Assembly: GCA_963668625.2 (NCBI GenBank)
Contig: CAXXKA010000004.1
Coordinates: 32,001 to 96,000 of the forward strand
Origin: an uncultured candidate division Zixibacteria bacterium
GTDB lineage: Bacteria > Zixibacteria > MSB-5A5 > UBA10806 > 4484-95
Length of the DNA: 64,000 nt
Direction: 5' to 3'
How positions within the stretch are numbered: position 1 is the stretch's first letter; every line of letters starts with the position of its first letter. The translations under genes were made by a program, and so were the position numbers. This document shows, piece by piece, positions 8,336-61,966 of this stretch. The notes under the pieces are model-generated. The model was given only the letters and a program-made list of their open reading frames with translations, was not told where the DNA came from and ran no database searches.

Positions 8336-8372
8336 TCGTACTCCTATGATAAAAGTCTACTCCAAATTTCAG

Positions 8373-9386
8373 TTATCTGTTTGCTAACACAAAGTTAGGG
8401 AAATCTTCAAACACCCAATTATTTTTCAAGGTGTCATAGATTATTCCCAGTAATTTTCTGGCTGTGGCAATGATAGCCTTACCGCTGCCACGACGGTTTT
8501 TTATACGATTGTAATATTTACTCAAGTAATGGTTATATCGTATGGCAACAAGCGTACACTGCACCAGTGTAGTCCGACCAATCTTAGAACCACGCTTGGT
8601 AATCCGACCATGATGCTGAATCTCGTTTGAATTGGAAACTCGCGGCACTACGCCAAAATATGAGGCCAATTTATCTTTGTCCGAAAAATCAGCAACATCA
8701 CCAATTACCGAAAGCAACACTGTAGCTGATTTGCTGCCGATTCCTTTGATGCTGGTCAGGTTCTTATGCCCGTTCAACTTGCGACCCTGATCCTCTATCT
8801 GTTTGTCCAGCTTTTTTATCCCCTCATTCAAACTGCGAATCTGATCAACCAATACCTCAAGCTCAACAGAAACAACCTCATCAAAATTCATCTTTAGAAC
8901 CCGCTCCAAACTCTTGTTGCTGGAGTAGGCCTCCTTTTTACTCTTGATACCATGATGATTGAGTATGTTGTGTATTTTATTCTTCAAAGCTGTACGTAAC
9001 TTGACCAGCTTGTCCCGTGTCCCAACAAGTGAACTGATCTGCGCTTTATCTTTCGTCTTTAATCGGGCTTTCGGCAACATGTCTTTGCTCATAAAATAGG
9101 CTAAGTTCCTGGCATCGTTTTCATCCGTCTTACTGACTGATGATTTGATTATCTCAAATTTGTTCGGATCGACGACAACAACTCGCTTGACCAAATGCGA
9201 TATCTCATCAACGAAATAACGAGTGTTGCCAGTGGCCTCAACCGCTACACAATCCGTCTTTTTTAATCCTCGTTTAAATTCCTTTAGATCCTTTAGCCGA
9301 TACTCCTTGATCCTCTCCCGACCACCGGCTGTCAGGCAACACACGGTCAAACTGTTTGTGTGAAGGTCTACTCCTAAGTACCTCAT
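8373..9386 (-). CDS. IS110-family DEDD recombinase
   Basis: GVDLH, VEATG, KTDENDA and SYFGVVPRVSNS motifs; start taken at MRYLGVDLH. Confidence 0.95.
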   Translation of the reverse strand: MRYLGVDLHTNSLTVCCLTAGGRERIKEYRLKDLKEFKRGLKKTDCVAVEATGNTRYFVDEISHLVKRVVVVDPNKFEIIKSSVSKTDENDARNLAYFMSKDMLPKARLKTKDKAQISSLVGTRDKLVKLRTALKNKIHNILNHHGIKSKKEAYSSNKSLERVLKMNFDEVVSVELEVLVDQIRSLNEGIKKLDKQIEDQGRKLNGHKNLTSIKGIGSKSATVLLSVIGDVADFSDKDKLASYFGVVPRVSNSNEIQHHGRITKRGSKIGRTTLVQCTLVAIRYNHYLSKYYNRIKNRRGSGKAIIATARKLLGIIYDTLKNNWVFEDFPNFVLANR

Positions 9387-9389
9387 CTT

Positions 9390-9605
9390 CTTGCTCCATT
9401 CTATGGTTATCACTGGAGCAGACTCTCTGTCGGCGCCTACCAAACTCCTATTCAAGGTCTTTGCCTTATGGTGGCAATTCGGTTACAGGTCTGATTAATC
9501 TCCTTTACGAGGTCTGGCCTCAAGCATTCAGTTCAGCCTATAACCTATCCGCTCCAGTTAGAAATTCATTACCGAAGCTCTAACACCAACAGAATAGATT
9601 AGCAA
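9390..9605 (-). ncRNA. Putative bridge/seek RNA region of IS110 #1
   Basis: About 220-nt non-coding end upstream of the recombinase; two AGACCT-led segments ending in AAAGGAG (target-like) and ATAGGAG (donor-like); boundaries approximate. Confidence 0.6.
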
Positions 9606-9801
9606 GATGCTTTTATCGTACCATCTCCTTTTTTATCAGATAATTATAATTGATTTAACCAGGATTGAGTTCCCGAAATGGTATATCTCTTTGGTTGAAT
9701 ATTATCAATAAAAAACTATTCTATAATGTAACACCGGCGGCTATAATCCGTATTTCAAAAGGTACGAAAATAGTTATCATGGTTTGGGAAAGGAAATTAT
9801 T

Positions 9802-11959: not shown

Positions 11960-12490
11960 ATGAGATCAAGATATAAAGTATTTTCAGATAATAAGACTTA
12001 TTTTATTACATCATCAATAGTTAAATGGATACCATTATTTAATGAGGTAGTATTCAAGGAATTAATTGTTAATTCTTTAAAATATAGAATTGATAAGAAG
12101 CAGTTAGAATTGCACGCATACGTGATTATGCCTAATCACATTCATCTAATTATTTCATCAGAAAATGTCGCGAAGTTTATGAAGGATTTTAAAAGTTATA
12201 CAGCAAGGCAAGTTATAGATTCTTTAAAATATCAAAAACGAATAGCAATGTTAAAAAGATTTTCATGTTTTAAGAAAAGCTATAAGAAAGAATCGACTTT
12301 TCAGGTATGGCAGGAAGGATATCATCCAGAAATGATAATCAATCAGGATATGTTTAATCAAAAAACAGAGTATATACATAGTAATCCGGTTAGAGCTGGA
12401 TTAATTGAACAAGCTGAAGATTGGAAGTATTCAAGTCTTTCTAATTATATTGATGATAGCGGATTACTTCCGATTGTGAAGATTTATTAA
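11960..12490 (+). CDS. REP-associated tyrosine transposase (RAYT, HUH Y1)
   Basis: YFITSS, AYVIMPNHIHLI (HUH), FKSYTA, VWQEGYH, YIHSNPVRAGL, WKYSS; very AT-rich; flanked by REPs. Confidence 0.93.
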   Translation: MRSRYKVFSDNKTYFITSSIVKWIPLFNEVVFKELIVNSLKYRIDKKQLELHAYVIMPNHIHLIISSENVAKFMKDFKSYTARQVIDSLKYQKRIAMLKRFSCFKKSYKKESTFQVWQEGYHPEMIINQDMFNQKTEYIHSNPVRAGLIEQAEDWKYSSLSNYIDDSGLLPIVKIY

Positions 12491-26388: not shown

Positions 26389-26959
26389 ATTTTAGCTCAT
26401 CACTCTCGTTAGTGGCGATAATCGTTATACCATCATGCTTGCCGATTACCTGATCGACTAAAGTTTTTCCCGCCTCATCGAGATTGGCCGAGGGCTCATC
26501 CAGAATGAGAAGCGGAGGTTCTTTCATGATTGCCAATACGTATTTCAAGCGTTGTTTCATACCGGAGGAATACGATCCAACCTGATCATCCCCCCTGCTT
26601 TCGAGATCGAAACGTGACAGCATTCCATCGAAATTACGAATCGATAAGCCGGATAATTTCGCAAAAAATGCAAGATTCTCGTTGGCTGTCAGTTCATCAT
26701 ATAAATACAGATCAGGAGATACCAGACCGATATACGGCAATATTTCAGAGCCGGTATAAGATTTGCCGTCAAGCTCGAACGTTACCGTGCCGGCGGTGGG
26801 AGCCAGCGATGAACTTATAACATTGAGCAGCGTGGTTTTACCCGAGCCGTTGGGGCCGGTAATCACCAGTTTGACGCCTTTTTCGATTTCCAGGCTGATA
26901 TCGTTAAAAACATCCCGACCGGGGAATCGGCGGGAGAGTTTATTTAAAATCAATCGCAT
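26357..26959 (-). CDS. ccmA: Heme ABC exporter ATPase CcmA
   Basis: GPNGSGKTT, YSSGMKQR, LILDEP; first gene of the ccm cluster. Confidence 0.88.
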   Translation of the reverse strand: MRLILNKLSRRFPGRDVFNDISLEIEKGVKLVITGPNGSGKTTLLNVISSSLAPTAGTVTFELDGKSYTGSEILPYIGLVSPDLYLYDELTANENLAFFAKLSGLSIRNFDGMLSRFDLESRGDDQVGSYSSGMKQRLKYVLAIMKEPPLLILDEPSANLDEAGKTLVDQVIGKHDGITIIATNESDELKYADETIELGK

Positions 26960-27185
26960 ATCGGGATTATATTACTATGAAAGGGGCAATTAGGAAAGTT
27001 TTTTATTCAGGGAGATTGAATACATTCAATGGGCGATTATCCAAATTGCTAATAATTGCGAGTATATGAAGCGGTCGAATTTCCGAAAGTAACTATGTTA
27101 TCAAAAGCTTGAGCCTCAGTCATTCGGATTGTATTGTTATTTTGACAAACATTCAACAATCAACACGAACAAACAGGAGGCTCAA

Positions 27186-28244
27186 ATGCCATGTTACAAC
27201 AAAATCGAGCGTGAAGCCAACACTATTTACGTTGGTATTGACGTTCATAAGCGGAGTTGGCATGTAACAATGCGAACAACTGAGCAAGAGTTATGGAAAG
27301 GCAGTATTGCAGCTGATTGGGAAGTATTGAAAAAAGTATTGGGGCGTTATTCCGATTGTGACATTTCGGTAGTTTACGAAGCCGGTTTTAGTGGTTTCTG
27401 GTTATATGACAAACTGGTAGCCTGGGGAGCGTCATGTATAGTGACTCCGCCGAGTTTGATTCCTTCTGAATACGGCAATCGGGTCAAAACTGATCGCCTC
27501 GACAGTGCCAAGCTTGCTTTACTACTTTCCCGTAGTATGCTCAAGGCAGTATGGGTACCTGATGTCGAAGCGCGTGGTCATCGCCAGGTATTGCGTCGCC
27601 GTCGCCAGTTGGTCAGCGACCGGGTCCGTATTCAATGCCGTATCAAGAGTGAGTTAGCCTGTTTCGGTCTATCTCTGCCGACAATTAGCGGCAAGTGGAC
27701 GGAGACATTCGAACAGCATTTATGGCAGTTGCGTTTTAGTGATCGCTGGCAGACAGAGAGTTTTCAGAGGTTACTGACACAGTATCGGCTGGTGAGTGAA
27801 TTGATTACTCAACAGACACGGTTATTGAAAGAATTGTCAAAACTGGATCGTTATCGGGAAGCGGTTGAGCGTCTACGTAGTGTTCCGGGCATCGGCTTGT
27901 TAACGGCGATGGAACTATTATTGGAGTTAGGGGACTTCAGCCGATTTAGTCGAGGAAGCCAATTGGCCGCCTACGTGGGCTTGACTCCAAGCCAATATTC
28001 CTCCGGTGACAAGGTTCGACTAGGACGAATCACCAGGATCGGCAAACCGCAGTTACGGTCGAATCTGATCGAAGCCTCCTGGATTTTGATCAGGAAGGAT
28101 CCGGCCCAGGCTCAGCGTTATCAACAGCTCAAGTGGCGGTGTGGTTCCAAACGAGCCATTGTGGCCAGTGCCCGCCGTCTACTGTTAATCGTACGGCGTC
28201 TGATGCTTGACCATCAGAGCTATCGAATCCAAACCGCAGCATAA
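27186..28244 (+). CDS. IS110-family DEDD recombinase
   Basis: RBS aggagg; GIDVH, VYEAG, KTDRLDS, AYVGLTPSQYSSG. Confidence 0.95.
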   Translation: MPCYNKIEREANTIYVGIDVHKRSWHVTMRTTEQELWKGSIAADWEVLKKVLGRYSDCDISVVYEAGFSGFWLYDKLVAWGASCIVTPPSLIPSEYGNRVKTDRLDSAKLALLLSRSMLKAVWVPDVEARGHRQVLRRRRQLVSDRVRIQCRIKSELACFGLSLPTISGKWTETFEQHLWQLRFSDRWQTESFQRLLTQYRLVSELITQQTRLLKELSKLDRYREAVERLRSVPGIGLLTAMELLLELGDFSRFSRGSQLAAYVGLTPSQYSSGDKVRLGRITRIGKPQLRSNLIEASWILIRKDPAQAQRYQQLKWRCGSKRAIVASARRLLLIVRRLMLDHQSYRIQTAA

Positions 28245-28249
28245 AAAAG

Positions 28250-28500
28250 AGATAATTAGTTTACAATATCTGAGTTTGGAGAATGGCGAAGGAATCCTTG
28301 TGGCTTAACAACAGACCGCGCAGGAAAGGGTGTCATCTCCCCTGGTAATAATCTCGGATTGATTAATTGTGGCTGTGTTTGAGGGCCAGACCACGAATAG
28401 CAGGGTGACTATTATCGGCAATGTCTAACAGTGGCAGCATGTTGTAGTTTAAACATGGGTATTCTGCGTTTTATTAAGAAAAGGAGAAATCGATATAACA
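28250..28500 (+). ncRNA. Putative bridge/seek RNA region of IS110 #2
   Basis: Non-coding right end with target-complementary gaaggaatcctt, target-identical aggaaagg and donor-identical atagcag segments; boundaries approximate. Confidence 0.6.
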
Positions 28501-28691
28501 ATACTAACCGAACAATATCACTTGACATGATACATAGCAGGATTCCTGCCATGAAAACCGGTAAGTTATTACAACCAAATAGACCGATTGCTTCGTCCCT
28601 CCAGTCCTCGCAATGCCAATCTCTTTACTATTTCCGCTGGTCGAACTCTCTGCCTGCGTTATATAGTATGGCATTCTGTGAAACAAGACGA

Positions 28692-28718
28692 CGTTACGAA
28701 GCGGCGCTTCGTAACGAG
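28692..28718 (-). repeat. Single RAYT-family REP
   Basis: cgttacgaagc-ggc-gcttcgtaacgag. Confidence 0.85.
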
Positions 28719-28740
28719 GTGTTAATTATTGCGAGAATCA

Positions 28741-29472
28741 TCACACTATCGGCTGGGCTAGCCTGCTCCACCTCACCCGGGCCGGGAAGTGCCAGATATT
28801 GTACCCAATCCAATCTATGACAGAGAAAAATCCGCCTATTTTCGGCGAATTATTATCAACCGCCCATGACCAGTGAATCATTAGCGCGCGGCCCATTACC
28901 AGGCGTTTGTCGAGTAATCCCCAGAAACGTGAGTCGGCCGAGTTATCGCGGTTATCCCCCATCATGAACATCATGCCCTCCGGGACTTTAAGAGGCGGCA
29001 TATTATCCCTTGAACCGCCGCGCACACCGGCATGATACGGTATCATGCGGTTATCGGCATATTTGCCGTGAGACGGTAATGGAACCAGCTCGCCATCTAC
29101 ATAAACCTTCTTGTTTACTATCTCTACCGTTTGACCGCCAACCGCTATACATCTTTTAATATAGTTTACTCGTTGATTGAGCGGGTATTTGAATATTACG
29201 ATATCACCCGGCTTGGGATCTTGAAGAGCCGGGAGCTTTATGTTGACGAACGGAATCGGCAATTTCATTCCATAGATGAATTTGTTGGCAAGTAAAAAAT
29301 CTCCTACCAGCAAAGTATCCTCCATCGAGCCGGAGGGAATTTTGTACGCCTCGACAATCGAGGTTTTTATGATAAGCGCCATGATAAGCGCGATTGCCAG
29401 CGATTCAATAGTCTCCCATGAGGATTCCATCGGGGTTTTCTTTTCGCCTTTGGGCTTAAAAAATATTGACAT
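28741..29472 (-). CDS. lepB: Signal peptidase I
   Basis: IPSGSME (Ser), YIKRC (Lys), MGDNRDNSADSRFWG. Confidence 0.93.
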   Translation of the reverse strand: MSIFFKPKGEKKTPMESSWETIESLAIALIMALIIKTSIVEAYKIPSGSMEDTLLVGDFLLANKFIYGMKLPIPFVNIKLPALQDPKPGDIVIFKYPLNQRVNYIKRCIAVGGQTVEIVNKKVYVDGELVPLPSHGKYADNRMIPYHAGVRGGSRDNMPPLKVPEGMMFMMGDNRDNSADSRFWGLLDKRLVMGRALMIHWSWAVDNNSPKIGGFFSVIDWIGYNIWHFPARVRWSRLAQPIV

Positions 29473-36145: not shown

Positions 36146-36765
36146 CTGGTTCCAAAGCGCCGCTTTGGAACCCCGCCTGCGTTGGCAACGATGGCATTAC
36201 TGCGCAATGAGGCATCGTTTCGAAGCGGCGCTTCGTAACGAGGAGAAATTGATATCTTGCGTAGGTCAAGACCCCTGTGGTCTTGACGTGTGATGGGATG
36301 ATTGAGAAGATAGTTTTACTCGGTCGAAACCACAGGGGTTTCAACCTACTCGCGCTGCCAATTGCCGCAGCGACGACTGAAATGTTTTCAAGAAGCAGAA
36401 AACTTGCATGTCATCCCTTCGGAGGAGATTGTTGAAAAGTTATTTGCCGCGAGTCGCTGGGAATCCCTTCCCGGCGACATACTGCATGAAAACAGCAGGA
36501 AGGAAAGGATTCCTTCCTGCTCAGTGATGGGGCTAATTAGACGGTGACTGAAATGTTTTCTTAAAGTAGAAAACATATCTGTCATCCCTTCGGAGGAAGG
36601 GAACCAGTACGGCCTTTTTCCCTTAAATGATTCATCCTATAGGAATACTACAACACTCGAAACTGGAGTTTCTCGGGCAATTGTGTTCCCAAACGGAGTT
36701 TAGGAACAAGGAAATGCCCCTTTCCCCTCCTTCTGGATCCCGGCTCCCCCTGCCGGGATGACATG
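36146..36765. repeat. Cluster of palindromic repeats from several families
   Basis: RAYT-type REPIN 36146-36243; GTAG-type gtaggtcaagacccctgtggtcttgac at 36261; hairpin agcaggaaggaaaggattccttcctgct at ~36494-36521; GTCAT-type repeats; REP variant 36656-36710. Confidence 0.8.
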
Positions 36766-61777: not shown

Positions 61778-61921
61778 TGTCATTCACACGGAAGTGGGAA
61801 TCTGTTCATTTTATCTCGAAGGTATATAAACGAGATCCCCGTTTTCACGGGGATGACAACTTTCCACTGAGCAGGAAGGAATCCTTTCCTTCCTGCTGTT
61901 TTCATGCAGAATGTCGCCGGG
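61778..61921. repeat. GTCAT-type doublet plus inverted copy of 36470-36525
   Basis: cactgagcaggaaggaatcctttccttcctgctgttttcatgcagaatgtcgccgg is the reverse complement (1 mismatch) of 36470-36525. Confidence 0.8.
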
Positions 61922-61966
61922 TAAGGATAAAAATATTCGTCCGCCCTGCACTTTTGAATACGGATC

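Follow-up and report, generated by a model that had tools for sequence, protein, structure and literature searches.

The window (the whole 64,000-nucleotide stretch of DNA analysed here) carries, with a probability that we put at roughly nine in ten, an RNA-guided IS1111 element that targets REP loops (Table 1). Predicted RNA guides that match the REP loop account for the landing sites of the copies of this element. The known mechanism is left unchanged, and the seekRNA or bridge-RNA logic of IS1111 elements is already published (PMC11187229).

Table 1. Features of the element, its occupied site and the REP units in the window
Feature	Position	Strand	Remarks
Left AG core copy	27088..27089	+	last two bases of the target left half (..GAAAG)
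IS1111-type insertion sequence	27090..28540	+	1451 bp, right AG copy (28539-28540) included
Left subterminal inverted repeat TATGTTATCA	27094..27103	+	sequence reading; first six bases TATGTT would be the -10 of the junction promoter
5' leader with 9-bp inverted repeat	27109..27185	+	TTGAGCCTC (27109-17) / GAGGCUCAA (27177-85); sequence reading
Transposase gene, 352 aa	27186..28244	+	matches to PF01548, PF02371 and NF033542
Predicted seekRNA / bridge-RNA gene, 163 nt	28271..28433	+	full match to covariance model R1
Target-binding module	28278..28340	+	P1 28278-82/28336-40; P2 28284-88/28331-35; P3 28299-303/28316-20
T guide AAGGAAUCCUU	28289..28299	+	complement of top strand A-AG-GATTCCTT (core and right flank), also written AAGGATTCCTT
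B guide CAGGAAAGG(G)	28321..28330	+	identical to top strand CAGGAA-AG-G (left flank and core)
Donor-binding module	28346..28417	+	P4 28346-51/28412-17; 5' loop 28352-68; P5 28369-73/28390-94
Donor-module 3' loop GAAUAGCAG	28395..28403	+	last 7 nt = right end ATAGCAG (28534-28540)
Right end	28522..28540	+	-35 TTGACA (28522-27), right subterminal repeat TGATACATA (28528-36), GC, AG core copy
Occupied target, right half GATTCCTGCCA	28541..28551	+	with left GAAAG a 16-nt REP-profile match, the only REP-like part of the site
Second, inverted REP	36441..36513	-	nhmmer E 3e-05; overlaps the unit at 36458..36529
Unoccupied REP unit, hairpin 36494-36521	36458..36529	+	nhmmer E 2.7e-18; one mismatch to the 16-nt guide footprint
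Unoccupied REP unit, hairpin 61870-61897	61859..61931	-	nhmmer E 1.4e-18; one mismatch to the guide footprint

The window element is very probably an intact, recently active IS1111-family insertion sequence. The genome has five copies of it, with sequence differences at one base overall, so that the element is probably active at present. The single variant base belongs to the C1 copy, a C>T that corresponds to position 28334 and turns a G-C pair of helix P2 into G.U. In all five copies, AG is the sole sequence common to the left flank and the right end; a target-site duplication beyond this core is absent, and target and orientation are specific. The window copy has ..CCGAAAG|TAAC at its left flank and ..CATAGCAG|GATTCCTGCC at its right end. 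An earlier reading made from the sequence only had described an AG core with spacers of 5 and 3 nt to the inverted repeat; the core holds, but the left spacer, counted from the AG, has 4 nt (TAAC) and the right one 2 nt (GC). If the AG is assigned to the left, the element has a left terminal extension of 6 (AGTAAC) and a right one of 2 (GC), which become 7 and 3 when the outer T/A pair is dropped from the repeat. In IS1111 elements the subterminal repeats are usually 11-13 bp, with extensions of 7 or 6 bp on the left and 3 bp on the right (PMC11187229). Here, the left repeat pairs, with one indel, when set against the reverse complement of 28528-36 (TATGTATCA), with an agreement of 9/10; the repeats are shorter than the IS1111 norm. 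The left-end stretch ..CTATGTTAT.. is found again in close relatives, and the right end is kept as cTTGACnnnATACATAGCAG among relatives.

The transposase scores 59.7 bits with PF01548, 95.5 bits with PF02371 and 238.1 bits (cut-off 140) with NF033542, 'IS110 family RNA-guided transposase'. Residues D19, E65, D103 and D106, invariant in a comparison with seven relatives, would form the DEDD tetrad. Across the same relatives, GLTPSQYSSG at residues 265-274 is invariant, including all of the IS1111 motif positions G265, L266, P268, S272 and G274; IS1111 transposases are described as having GL-P----S(T)G in their C-terminal domain (PMC11187229). From the stop codon (28244) to the right end (28540) there is a non-coding stretch of 296 nt, and from the left end to the ATG only 96 nt. 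The inverted repeat in this short leader, also present in relatives L007-L013, would pair with the Shine-Dalgarno sequence GGAGG, and a role in expression may be supposed. Membership of the element in the IS110 group, with an IS621-like organisation and an RNA using the IS110 loop order, is hardly probable at all. Pfam and NCBIfam cannot tell the two groups apart, and the subterminal repeat of 9-10 bp with one indel is below the 11-13 bp usual in IS1111 (PMC11187229); however, the long non-coding region lies 3' of the transposase gene, the guide for the top strand precedes the one for the bottom strand, the transposase has the GL-P----SG motif, its 352 aa compare with the 330-350 stated for IS1111, and among labelled relatives on plasmids the best (36% identity across 86% of the protein) is called 'IS110-like element ISSso6 family transposase'.

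Covariance-model matches and co-varying helices showed that a conserved, structured RNA is encoded in the non-coding region. Model R1 scored 113.7 bits (E 1.5e-27) on the window and had no other match there; genome-wide it had five matches, one per copy of the element and none elsewhere, and it was positive in 48 of the 88 sources searched. Every match was on the transposase strand, directly 3' of the transposase gene. In an alignment of 11 sequences, 91.2% of the cells were paired versus 77.6% in shuffled alignments (0 of 500 shuffles reached 91.2%), pairing fell to 31-54% when the partners were slid, and changes on both sides were seen in 18 of 30 pairs; for P1 and P2, pairing was 100% with both sides changed in 8 of 10 pairs. 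For 48 sequences in an alignment fitted by the model itself, 90.5% versus 63.1% were paired, and 23 of 26 pairs had changes on both sides. P4 and P5 of the donor-binding module also co-vary, and CCACGAATAGCAG is kept among relatives whose transposase identity is as low as about 35-40%. The third segment of the sequence-only reading, agaccacgaatagcag, lies at 28388-28403, where it had been placed. When the donor-module 5' loop was compared by eye with the left end AGTAAC, several registers were seen, the best of 3-5 nt with a bulge, none convincing. No Rfam family was matched by the window with gathering scores or by 28200-28560 at E <= 1, and a single-sequence fold of 28245-28539 was no more stable than shuffles (z = +0.25), so that comparative folding took its place. 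A further stem, P0 (GAGG/CCUC), predicted by RNAalifold around the first module, is near-invariant and crosses P4, and was kept out of the model.

Two loops of the target-binding module are the putative guides. The complementary string gaaggaatcctt was located at 28288-28299 and aggaaagg at 28322-28329, as had been reported, the latter extending to caggaaagg from 28321. The described 12-nt complement is indeed a match, but the free loop has about 10-11 nt, as G28288 and U28299 are predicted to close P2 and P3. The B guide is identical to the top strand and thus would pair with the bottom strand, and the T and B loops both cover A-AG-G of the target. Along the RNA, the match to the top strand precedes the one to the bottom strand, which is the order in IS1111 seekRNAs (PMC11187229). 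Among related elements, the longest exact match of the T loop to its own core and right flank had a median of 8 (30 loci) versus a median of 3 in 866 cross pairings, and that of the B loop to its own left flank a median of 6 (27 loci) versus 3 in cross pairings; in the B-loop test the left end was set by a guide-independent motif, and 21 loci without exactly one such motif were left out. In L007 and L009 the match of T loop and flank is just 5-7 nt. By these comparisons, the two guide loops co-vary with the flanks of related elements. As for the strings themselves, AAGGATTCCTTC occurs three times in the window, at 28288 (-), 36505 (+) and 61875 (-), and shuffles give 0.42, whereas CAGGAAAGG alone occurs in the window once versus 0.52 expected, no excess over chance; the significance of the guides rests on position and comparison, not on the string CAGGAAAGG itself.

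Copy mapping, with insertion at the AG of GGAAAGGATTCC as the point to be checked, was the test that the sequence-only reading had named as able to refute it. All five copies lie between ..GAAAG (left) and GATT.. (right), which supports the reading. When the empty sites were rebuilt and scored with the REP profile, full REP units were seen at three of the five (55-68 bits) and a stand-alone hairpin at one (12.4 bits); in the empty site of the window copy, just 16 nt of REP are left (9.7 bits). The orientation of the insertion sequence relative to the REP is constant wherever the REP can be oriented. Against the 16-nt footprint, the occupied sites have 0, 1, 3, 3 and 4 mismatches (n=5), and the window copy fits worst; the series reads CAGGAAAG|GATTCCTT, ..CCTG, ..TTTTG, GAAGAAAG|..CCTA and TCCGAAAG|..CCTG. 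In the C8 copy, the T guide matches over 7 nt only. It might be argued that the five copies spread by duplication or homologous recombination of REP segments and that their shared flanks reflect common descent. There are just five sites, the half-sites of the C1 and window copies form no matched hairpin, which could hint at a rearrangement, and a fragment of the right end (69 nt) is present at a distance of 2 kb from the C6 copy. We consider this extremely unlikely, however, as identity ends within a few bases of the termini (the matches run from 8 to 1474 in a query of 1483), the copies differ in their flanking stems and in the wider flanks, so that the sites are independent REP units, and relatives in other organisms have likewise exact ends at other targets. 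A reciprocal exchange of flanks between the window and C1 copies was also considered for the unmatched half-sites and was rejected; the halves are not complementary.

GGAAAG|GATTCC is, by genome counts and profile matches, the conserved loop of a true REP family. The profile search of the genome gave 148 matches, 83 of them near full length; GGAAAGGATTCC occurs 39 times in the genome versus about 0.5 expected, and the REP stems co-vary around the fixed loop. The hairpin agcaggaaggaaaggattccttcctgct is present at 36494-36521 and its reverse complement at 61870-61897, in agreement with the earlier reading, and the inverted overlap of the REPs at 36441-36513 (-) and 36458-36529 (+) indicates a REP doublet. 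As had also been claimed, the window hairpins fit the guides better (12 and 8 nt) than does the occupied window site (10 and 6 nt), and free targets exist: 72 sites are at <=2 mismatches from the 16-nt footprint, with 1, 22 and 49 sites at 0, 1 and 2 mismatches versus 0.002, 0.1 and 2.2 expected. A 188-aa open reading frame at C8:173781-174347 scores 106.7 bits (cut-off 80) with NF047646, REP-associated tyrosine transposase (RAYT), and has five REPs within 1.5 kb, with none near the other seven of the eight Y1-transposase matches.

The abundance of REPs in the genome could also be taken to mean that the REP-like strings in the element are a captured or decayed REP copy and that the protein picks its sites by hairpin shape. 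In its favour, the two strings show partial complementarity, and the non-coding region alone has a minimum-energy fold that joins the two guides to each other as a hairpin; shape recognition is conceivable, since the stems of the REPs vary and their hairpin shape persists. Nevertheless, the REP profile has no match in the non-coding region, its only matches in the window being at 36441-36529 and 61859-61931; the strings occupy opposite strands of an internal loop with the conserved helix P3 between them; in 47 relatives the loop positions hold unrelated sequences that fit the flanks of each one; and the window and C8 copies have little or no REP context outside the guide footprint. A captured REP is thus very unlikely in our judgement, and guidance by the RNA is the reading that we follow below.

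In the proposed mechanism, the DEDD transposase would be guided by RNA from the 3' non-coding region (28271-28433). In the first module, the 5' loop AAGGAAUCCUU would pair with the target top strand (core AG and GATTCCTT) and the 3' loop CAGGAAAGG with the target bottom strand (CAGGAA and core AG); in the second module, GAAUAGCAG would pair with the bottom strand of the element right end and core. Pairing of the guides with the conserved REP loop would thus lead to insertion at the AG of such loops, always in a single orientation. Excision would produce a circle, in which the joined ends would form a TTGACA-17-TATGTT promoter (junction ..CATAGC-AG-TAACTATG), and this promoter would drive the transposase gene and, through read-through, the RNA. 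Its parts were found as previously described: TTGACA (28522-28527), 13 nt of right end and 4 nt of left end making 17 nt, and TATGTT (27094-27099). The number and near-identity of the copies, their insertion sites, the conserved RNA structure and the co-variation of guides with flanks across relatives are results of the present analysis, whereas we infer the RNA-protein binding, the strand pairing, the circle intermediate and the transcription from work on ISEc11, ISPa11, ISKpn4 and IS621. A sigma-70 consensus scan of 27000-28650 gave a single promoter-like site, which lies on the minus strand, and no plus-strand promoter; thus, the RNA would need read-through or a promoter type outside the scan. 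A terminator scan of the same interval gave none. The sequencing runs containing the element were three DNA runs (one sample, one study), with no RNA run among them, and for the contigs of X1-X3 over 26600-29000 no joint was reported and there was no empty-site or circle-junction contig; the loose contig ends at 27085 and 28547-28551 are flanks of other copies of the element.

The sequence-only reading had called this a new guide/REP pair. The pair itself is new; however, Siddiquee et al. (2024) had already reported an IS1111 element with a seekRNA that targets REPs, ISPa11 of Pseudomonas aeruginosa (PMC11187229). ISPa11 has the same IS1111 layout, with the non-coding region 3' of the transposase gene, and a REP target; its seekRNA co-purifies with the transposase, and in this RNA, too, the top-strand match precedes the bottom-strand match (PMC11187229). 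It differs in host lineage, and its REP family and guides are unrelated to those described here, in a comparison made by description, the window RNA being predicted only. The best labelled plasmid matches to the window transposase are ISEc11 / ISSso6-type elements, yet with just 36-39% identity. ISSso6 and ISEc11 are presumably close relatives. The seekRNA of ISEc11 is essential and reprogrammable (PMC11187229). IS621 resembles the window element in its DEDD recombinase, one RNA with target and donor internal loops, a 2-nt core and REP targeting (PMC11208160). As a member of the IS110 group, however, it has its RNA in the left end, upstream of the gene, and is without long subterminal repeats, and its strand-match order is opposite to that of IS1111 (PMC11187229). 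For IS1111 elements, Durrant et al. (2024) predicted a right-end bridge RNA in 93.0% (PMC11208160). ISPpu9 and ISPpu10 of Pseudomonas putida are IS110-family elements located in REPs, with a small RNA gene 3' of the transposase gene; the 5' leader of their transposase mRNA regulates expression, and may be compared with the repeat at 27109-27185 that would pair with the Shine-Dalgarno sequence (PMC12288879, PMC8450116). ISPpu9 has extra solo copies of the small RNA, whereas the R1 matches of the window element are confined to the five copies.

The relatives of this element come from Ignavibacteria and Zixibacteria metagenome bins. As a tentative and rather doubtful suggestion, the element and the 47 metagenomic relatives may constitute an undescribed clade of IS1111-like RNA-guided recombinases of Ignavibacteria/Zixibacteria type that is specialised on REP-type hairpins, the insertion sequence parasitising the REP. 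The guides of the window element read the REP loop, the part that is fixed while the stems drift. If the RAYT needs the loop, the REP would be unable to escape the insertion sequence without losing its own propagation; thus, one selfish element would parasitise another. Furthermore, the REP motif is present in 20 of 30 relatives sampled to class level, and model R1 had no match in these 30, so that the guide would be pre-adapted to spread across the order. The relative L131, inserted in a related hairpin (CCGTCAG|GAAAGGGTTCCTGACGG) with a shift of five bases, would point to repeated retargeting inside the same REP family.

In this one genome, a guide, its target, free and occupied targets and the cognate REP/RAYT system can be seen together, and a natural graded tolerance of mismatches, from 0 to 4 of 16, can be read. 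The lineage is distant from the proteobacterial elements studied to date (transposase identity to plasmid-borne relatives <=39%), and the alignment of 48 RNAs, taken together with their matched flanks, could help to establish guide rules for IS1111 elements, a branch less well characterised than IS621. For annotation, insertion at REP loops accounts for the assembly breaks that the insertion sequence causes there.

At all five copies of the IS1111-type element in the genome containing the window (4.3 Mb, 10 contigs), the left flank ends with ..GAAAG and the right flank begins with GATT... The core is AG, because only AG is common to the left flank and the right end, and no duplication besides AG was found at the ends of the five copies. 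The five empty sites were reconstructed and scored against a profile built from the REP repeat, a repeated hairpin. The rebuilt C6, C5 and C1 sites were full-length repeat units (55-68 bits), the C8 site retained the hairpin alone (12.4 bits), and the window site kept nothing but GAAAGGATTCCTGCCA (9.7 bits). Copies inserted in unrelated sequences were the refuting condition named in the sequence-only reading, and the outcome favours that reading; the five insertion sites, together with the conserved structure of the predicted RNA and the co-variation of guide and flank, support the guide/REP pair proposed there. The strings quoted in that reading were all confirmed in place.

Positions in the window and sequences of the element, its predicted RNA and its targets (slash, insertion point)
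Feature	Position	Sequence or remark
Left flank of window copy	to 27089	ends ..CCGAAAG
Element left end	from 27090	TAACTATG
Left subterminal inverted repeat	27094-27103	TATGTTATCA
Transposase ORF	27186-28244	352-aa product
P1	28278-82/28336-40	
P2	28284-88/28331-35	
First-module 5' string	28288-28299	gaaggaatcctt
First-module 5' loop	28289-98 + U28299	
P3	28299-303/28316-20	
First-module 3' loop	28321-30	
First-module 3' string	28321/2-28329	(c)aggaaagg
P4	28346-51/28412-17	
P5	28369-73/28390-94	
Second-module string	28388-28403	agaccacgaatagcag
Second-module 3' loop	28395-28403	GAAUAGCAG
Right subterminal inverted repeat	28528-28536	TGATACATA
Element right end	to 28540	..CATAGCAG
Right flank of window copy	begins after 28540	GATTCCTGCC
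REP hairpin, 28 nt	36494-36521	agcaggaaggaaaggattccttcctgct
Reverse complement of this hairpin	61870-61897	
C6 copy site		left GGTGTCAGGAAAG, right GATTCCTGACACC; perfect hairpin
C5 copy site		left AGCCGGCAGGAAAG, right GATTCCTTCCGGCT
C8 copy site		left GGTGGCAGGAAAG, right GATTTTTGCCACC
C1 copy site		left GCAGCAGGAAGAAAG, right GATTCCTACCACC
Window copy site		left TTTCCGAAAG, right GATTCCTGCCATG
Relative L013		T-loop reverse complement AGACCTGACAA; own site AG/ACCTGACACAAC
Relative L131		T-loop reverse complement AGGAAAGGGTA; own site AG/GAAAGGGTTCCT
Relative L124		T-loop reverse complement AGATAAAAGAC; own site AG/ATAAAAGATA

The targeted repeat is a genuine REP family. The genome has 39 occurrences of GGAAAGGATTCC, where chance predicts about 0.5; each is a hairpin loop, and the surrounding stems vary yet remain complementary (GGTGTCA/TGACACC, AGCAGGAA/TTCCTGCT, GCCGTCG/CAACGGC). 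Usually, a conserved stretch, ..TTCCCGGCGACATACTGCATGAAAACAG, lies 5' of this hairpin; part of it is an arm of a second, inverted hairpin, making a doublet at 36441-36529. The profile search of the genome gave 148 matches, 83 of them near full length. In the window, AAGGATTCCTTC occurs three times (0.42 expected), and the count of CAGGAAAGG by itself is not above chance. Among eight Y1-transposase-like ORFs in the genome, a 188-aa ORF (C8:173781-174347; L163:582-1148) is the only one with REPs within 1.5 kb, and it matches the REP-associated tyrosine transposase (RAYT) model NF047646 with 106.7 bits (cut-off, 80). This RAYT likely maintains the REP family targeted by the element. Five REPs in alternating orientation flank the RAYT gene (G000 C8:173200-174500). 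Another of the eight, a PF01797 match in the window (12053-12298, plus strand; C4:44053-44298; 31.8 bits), has no REP of the studied family within 1.5 kb. Other short repeats lie beside the REPs: tgtcatcccttcggagga occurs twice (36408-36426 and 36580-36598), and near 61.84 kb (61835-61860) there is a hairpin, ccccgttttcacgggg, with atgacaa after it. They may represent a further family of small repeats.

Transposase relatives were gathered from genome bins (among them L007-L013, with 52-77% identity) and metagenome contigs. Their downstream non-coding regions align with that of the window, and the consensus has two stem/internal-loop modules. In an 11-sequence alignment, 91.2% of cells were paired, compared with 77.6% in shuffles (0 of 500 reached 91.2%) and 31-54% when the partners were slid by one to three columns; the outer first-module helices were paired in 100% of cells, and eight of their ten pairs had changed on both sides. 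The suggested covariance model, R1, matched 48 of 88 sources, always on the transposase strand and directly 3' of the gene. Its sole match in the window is 28271-28433 (113.7 bits); genome-wide it matched the five copies and nothing else, and in 30 related genomes nothing. The 48 R1-aligned sequences, in an alignment biased towards the model, had 90.5% of cells paired (63.1% in shuffles). The five copies are identical over 1451 bp, except that C1 has a single C>T at the equivalent of 28334, which changes a G-C pair of P2 to G.U.

In the relatives, the loop at the position of window AAGGAAUCCUU (T loop) is the reverse complement of their own core and right flank. Among 30 loci whose right end was recognisable, the longest stretch matching exactly between T loop and own site had a median of 8 (mean 7.3), versus 3 (mean 3.3) in 866 cross pairings; in four loci it was just 4. 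The loop at the CAGGAAAGG position (B loop) corresponds to the left flank up to and including the core, with an own median of 6 and a cross median of 3 in 27 loci having exactly one left-end motif, located independently of the guide (21 others were dropped). A score of just 3 in three of the 27 is probably due to choice of the wrong left-end motif. This order, top-strand match first and bottom-strand match second, is that described for IS1111 seekRNAs (PMC11187229). A pairing sought between the donor-module 5' loop and the element left end was not established. One relative from a metagenome contig (L131, about 39% transposase identity) sits at CCGTCAG/GAAAGGGTTCCTGACGG, a REP hairpin of the same type in which the insertion point is five bases left of that used by the window element; the two guide loops of L131 both match.

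Together, the guides give the footprint CAGGAAAG/GATTCCTT. The genome contains 1, 22 and 49 free sites that have zero, one and two mismatches to it (0.002, 0.1 and 2.2 expected by chance). The occupied sites have 0 (C5), 1 (C6), 3 (C8), 3 (C1) and 4 (window) mismatches, so that of the window copy fits most poorly. The remark that the free hairpins match the RNA better than the occupied site does was right, because both window hairpins have one mismatch each, versus four. In a large REP sub-family, AATGG replaces AAAGG, altering the core A; none of the five copies lies inside it.

The mechanism of the element is not new. REP targeting is well documented among IS110/IS1111 elements, as in IS621, ISPa11 and ISPpu10 (PMC11187229) and also ISPpu9 (PMC12288879, PMC8450116), the ISPa11 seekRNA co-purifies with its own transposase (PMC11187229), and Durrant et al. 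predicted that 93.0% of IS1111 elements have a bridge RNA in the right end (PMC11208160). Protein binding by the RNA, strand pairing and a circle intermediate would be expected by analogy with ISEc11, ISPa11, ISKpn4 and IS621, as described for those elements (PMC11187229, PMC11208160). The clade of the element may specialise on RAYT-maintained REPs by way of their loop, which is fixed while the stems vary. If so, the target could not easily escape. The loop motif recurs in 20 of the 30 relatives whose genomes were searched, with almost no matches to a reversed control pattern.

The transposase matches PF01548, PF02371 and NCBIfam NF033542, 'IS110 family RNA-guided transposase' (238 bits); the closest labelled relatives among plasmid records have 36-39% identity. 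The element agrees with its family in the features tested, except that the subterminal repeat is shorter than usual. Joining of the ends would form a promoter (TTGACA, 17 nt, TATGTT). A sigma-70 scan found no promoter on the plus strand within the element, and contigs from three DNA runs of one sample contained no empty site and no circle junction. The transposase leader has a perfect 9-bp inverted repeat, TTGAGCCTC (27109-27117) and GAGGCTCAA (27177-27185), kept in relatives L007-L013, which would sequester the GGAGG ribosome-binding site; the ISPpu9 transposase is reportedly regulated by an mRNA leader structure (PMC8450116). A solo 69-nt right-end fragment (C6:578611-578679, in L006, C6:578587-578800; equivalent to window 28478-28546) begins 13 nt past an intact REP and has after it the right half of a different REP, GATTCCCACCACC. 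This fragment, 2 kb away from the complete copy in C6, may have arisen by deletion or aberrant recombination.

The window also contains a second, unrelated IS110-type element (about 8339-9631, minus strand; 11 copies in the genome), in which the non-coding region precedes the transposase gene. All 11 copies have (A/T)AAGGAG as the last bases of the left flank, and an ATG start codon follows after 4-9 nt in the right flank; therefore, this element occupies Shine-Dalgarno sites. Its right end, ..CATAGGAG, restores AGGAG ahead of the downstream gene.
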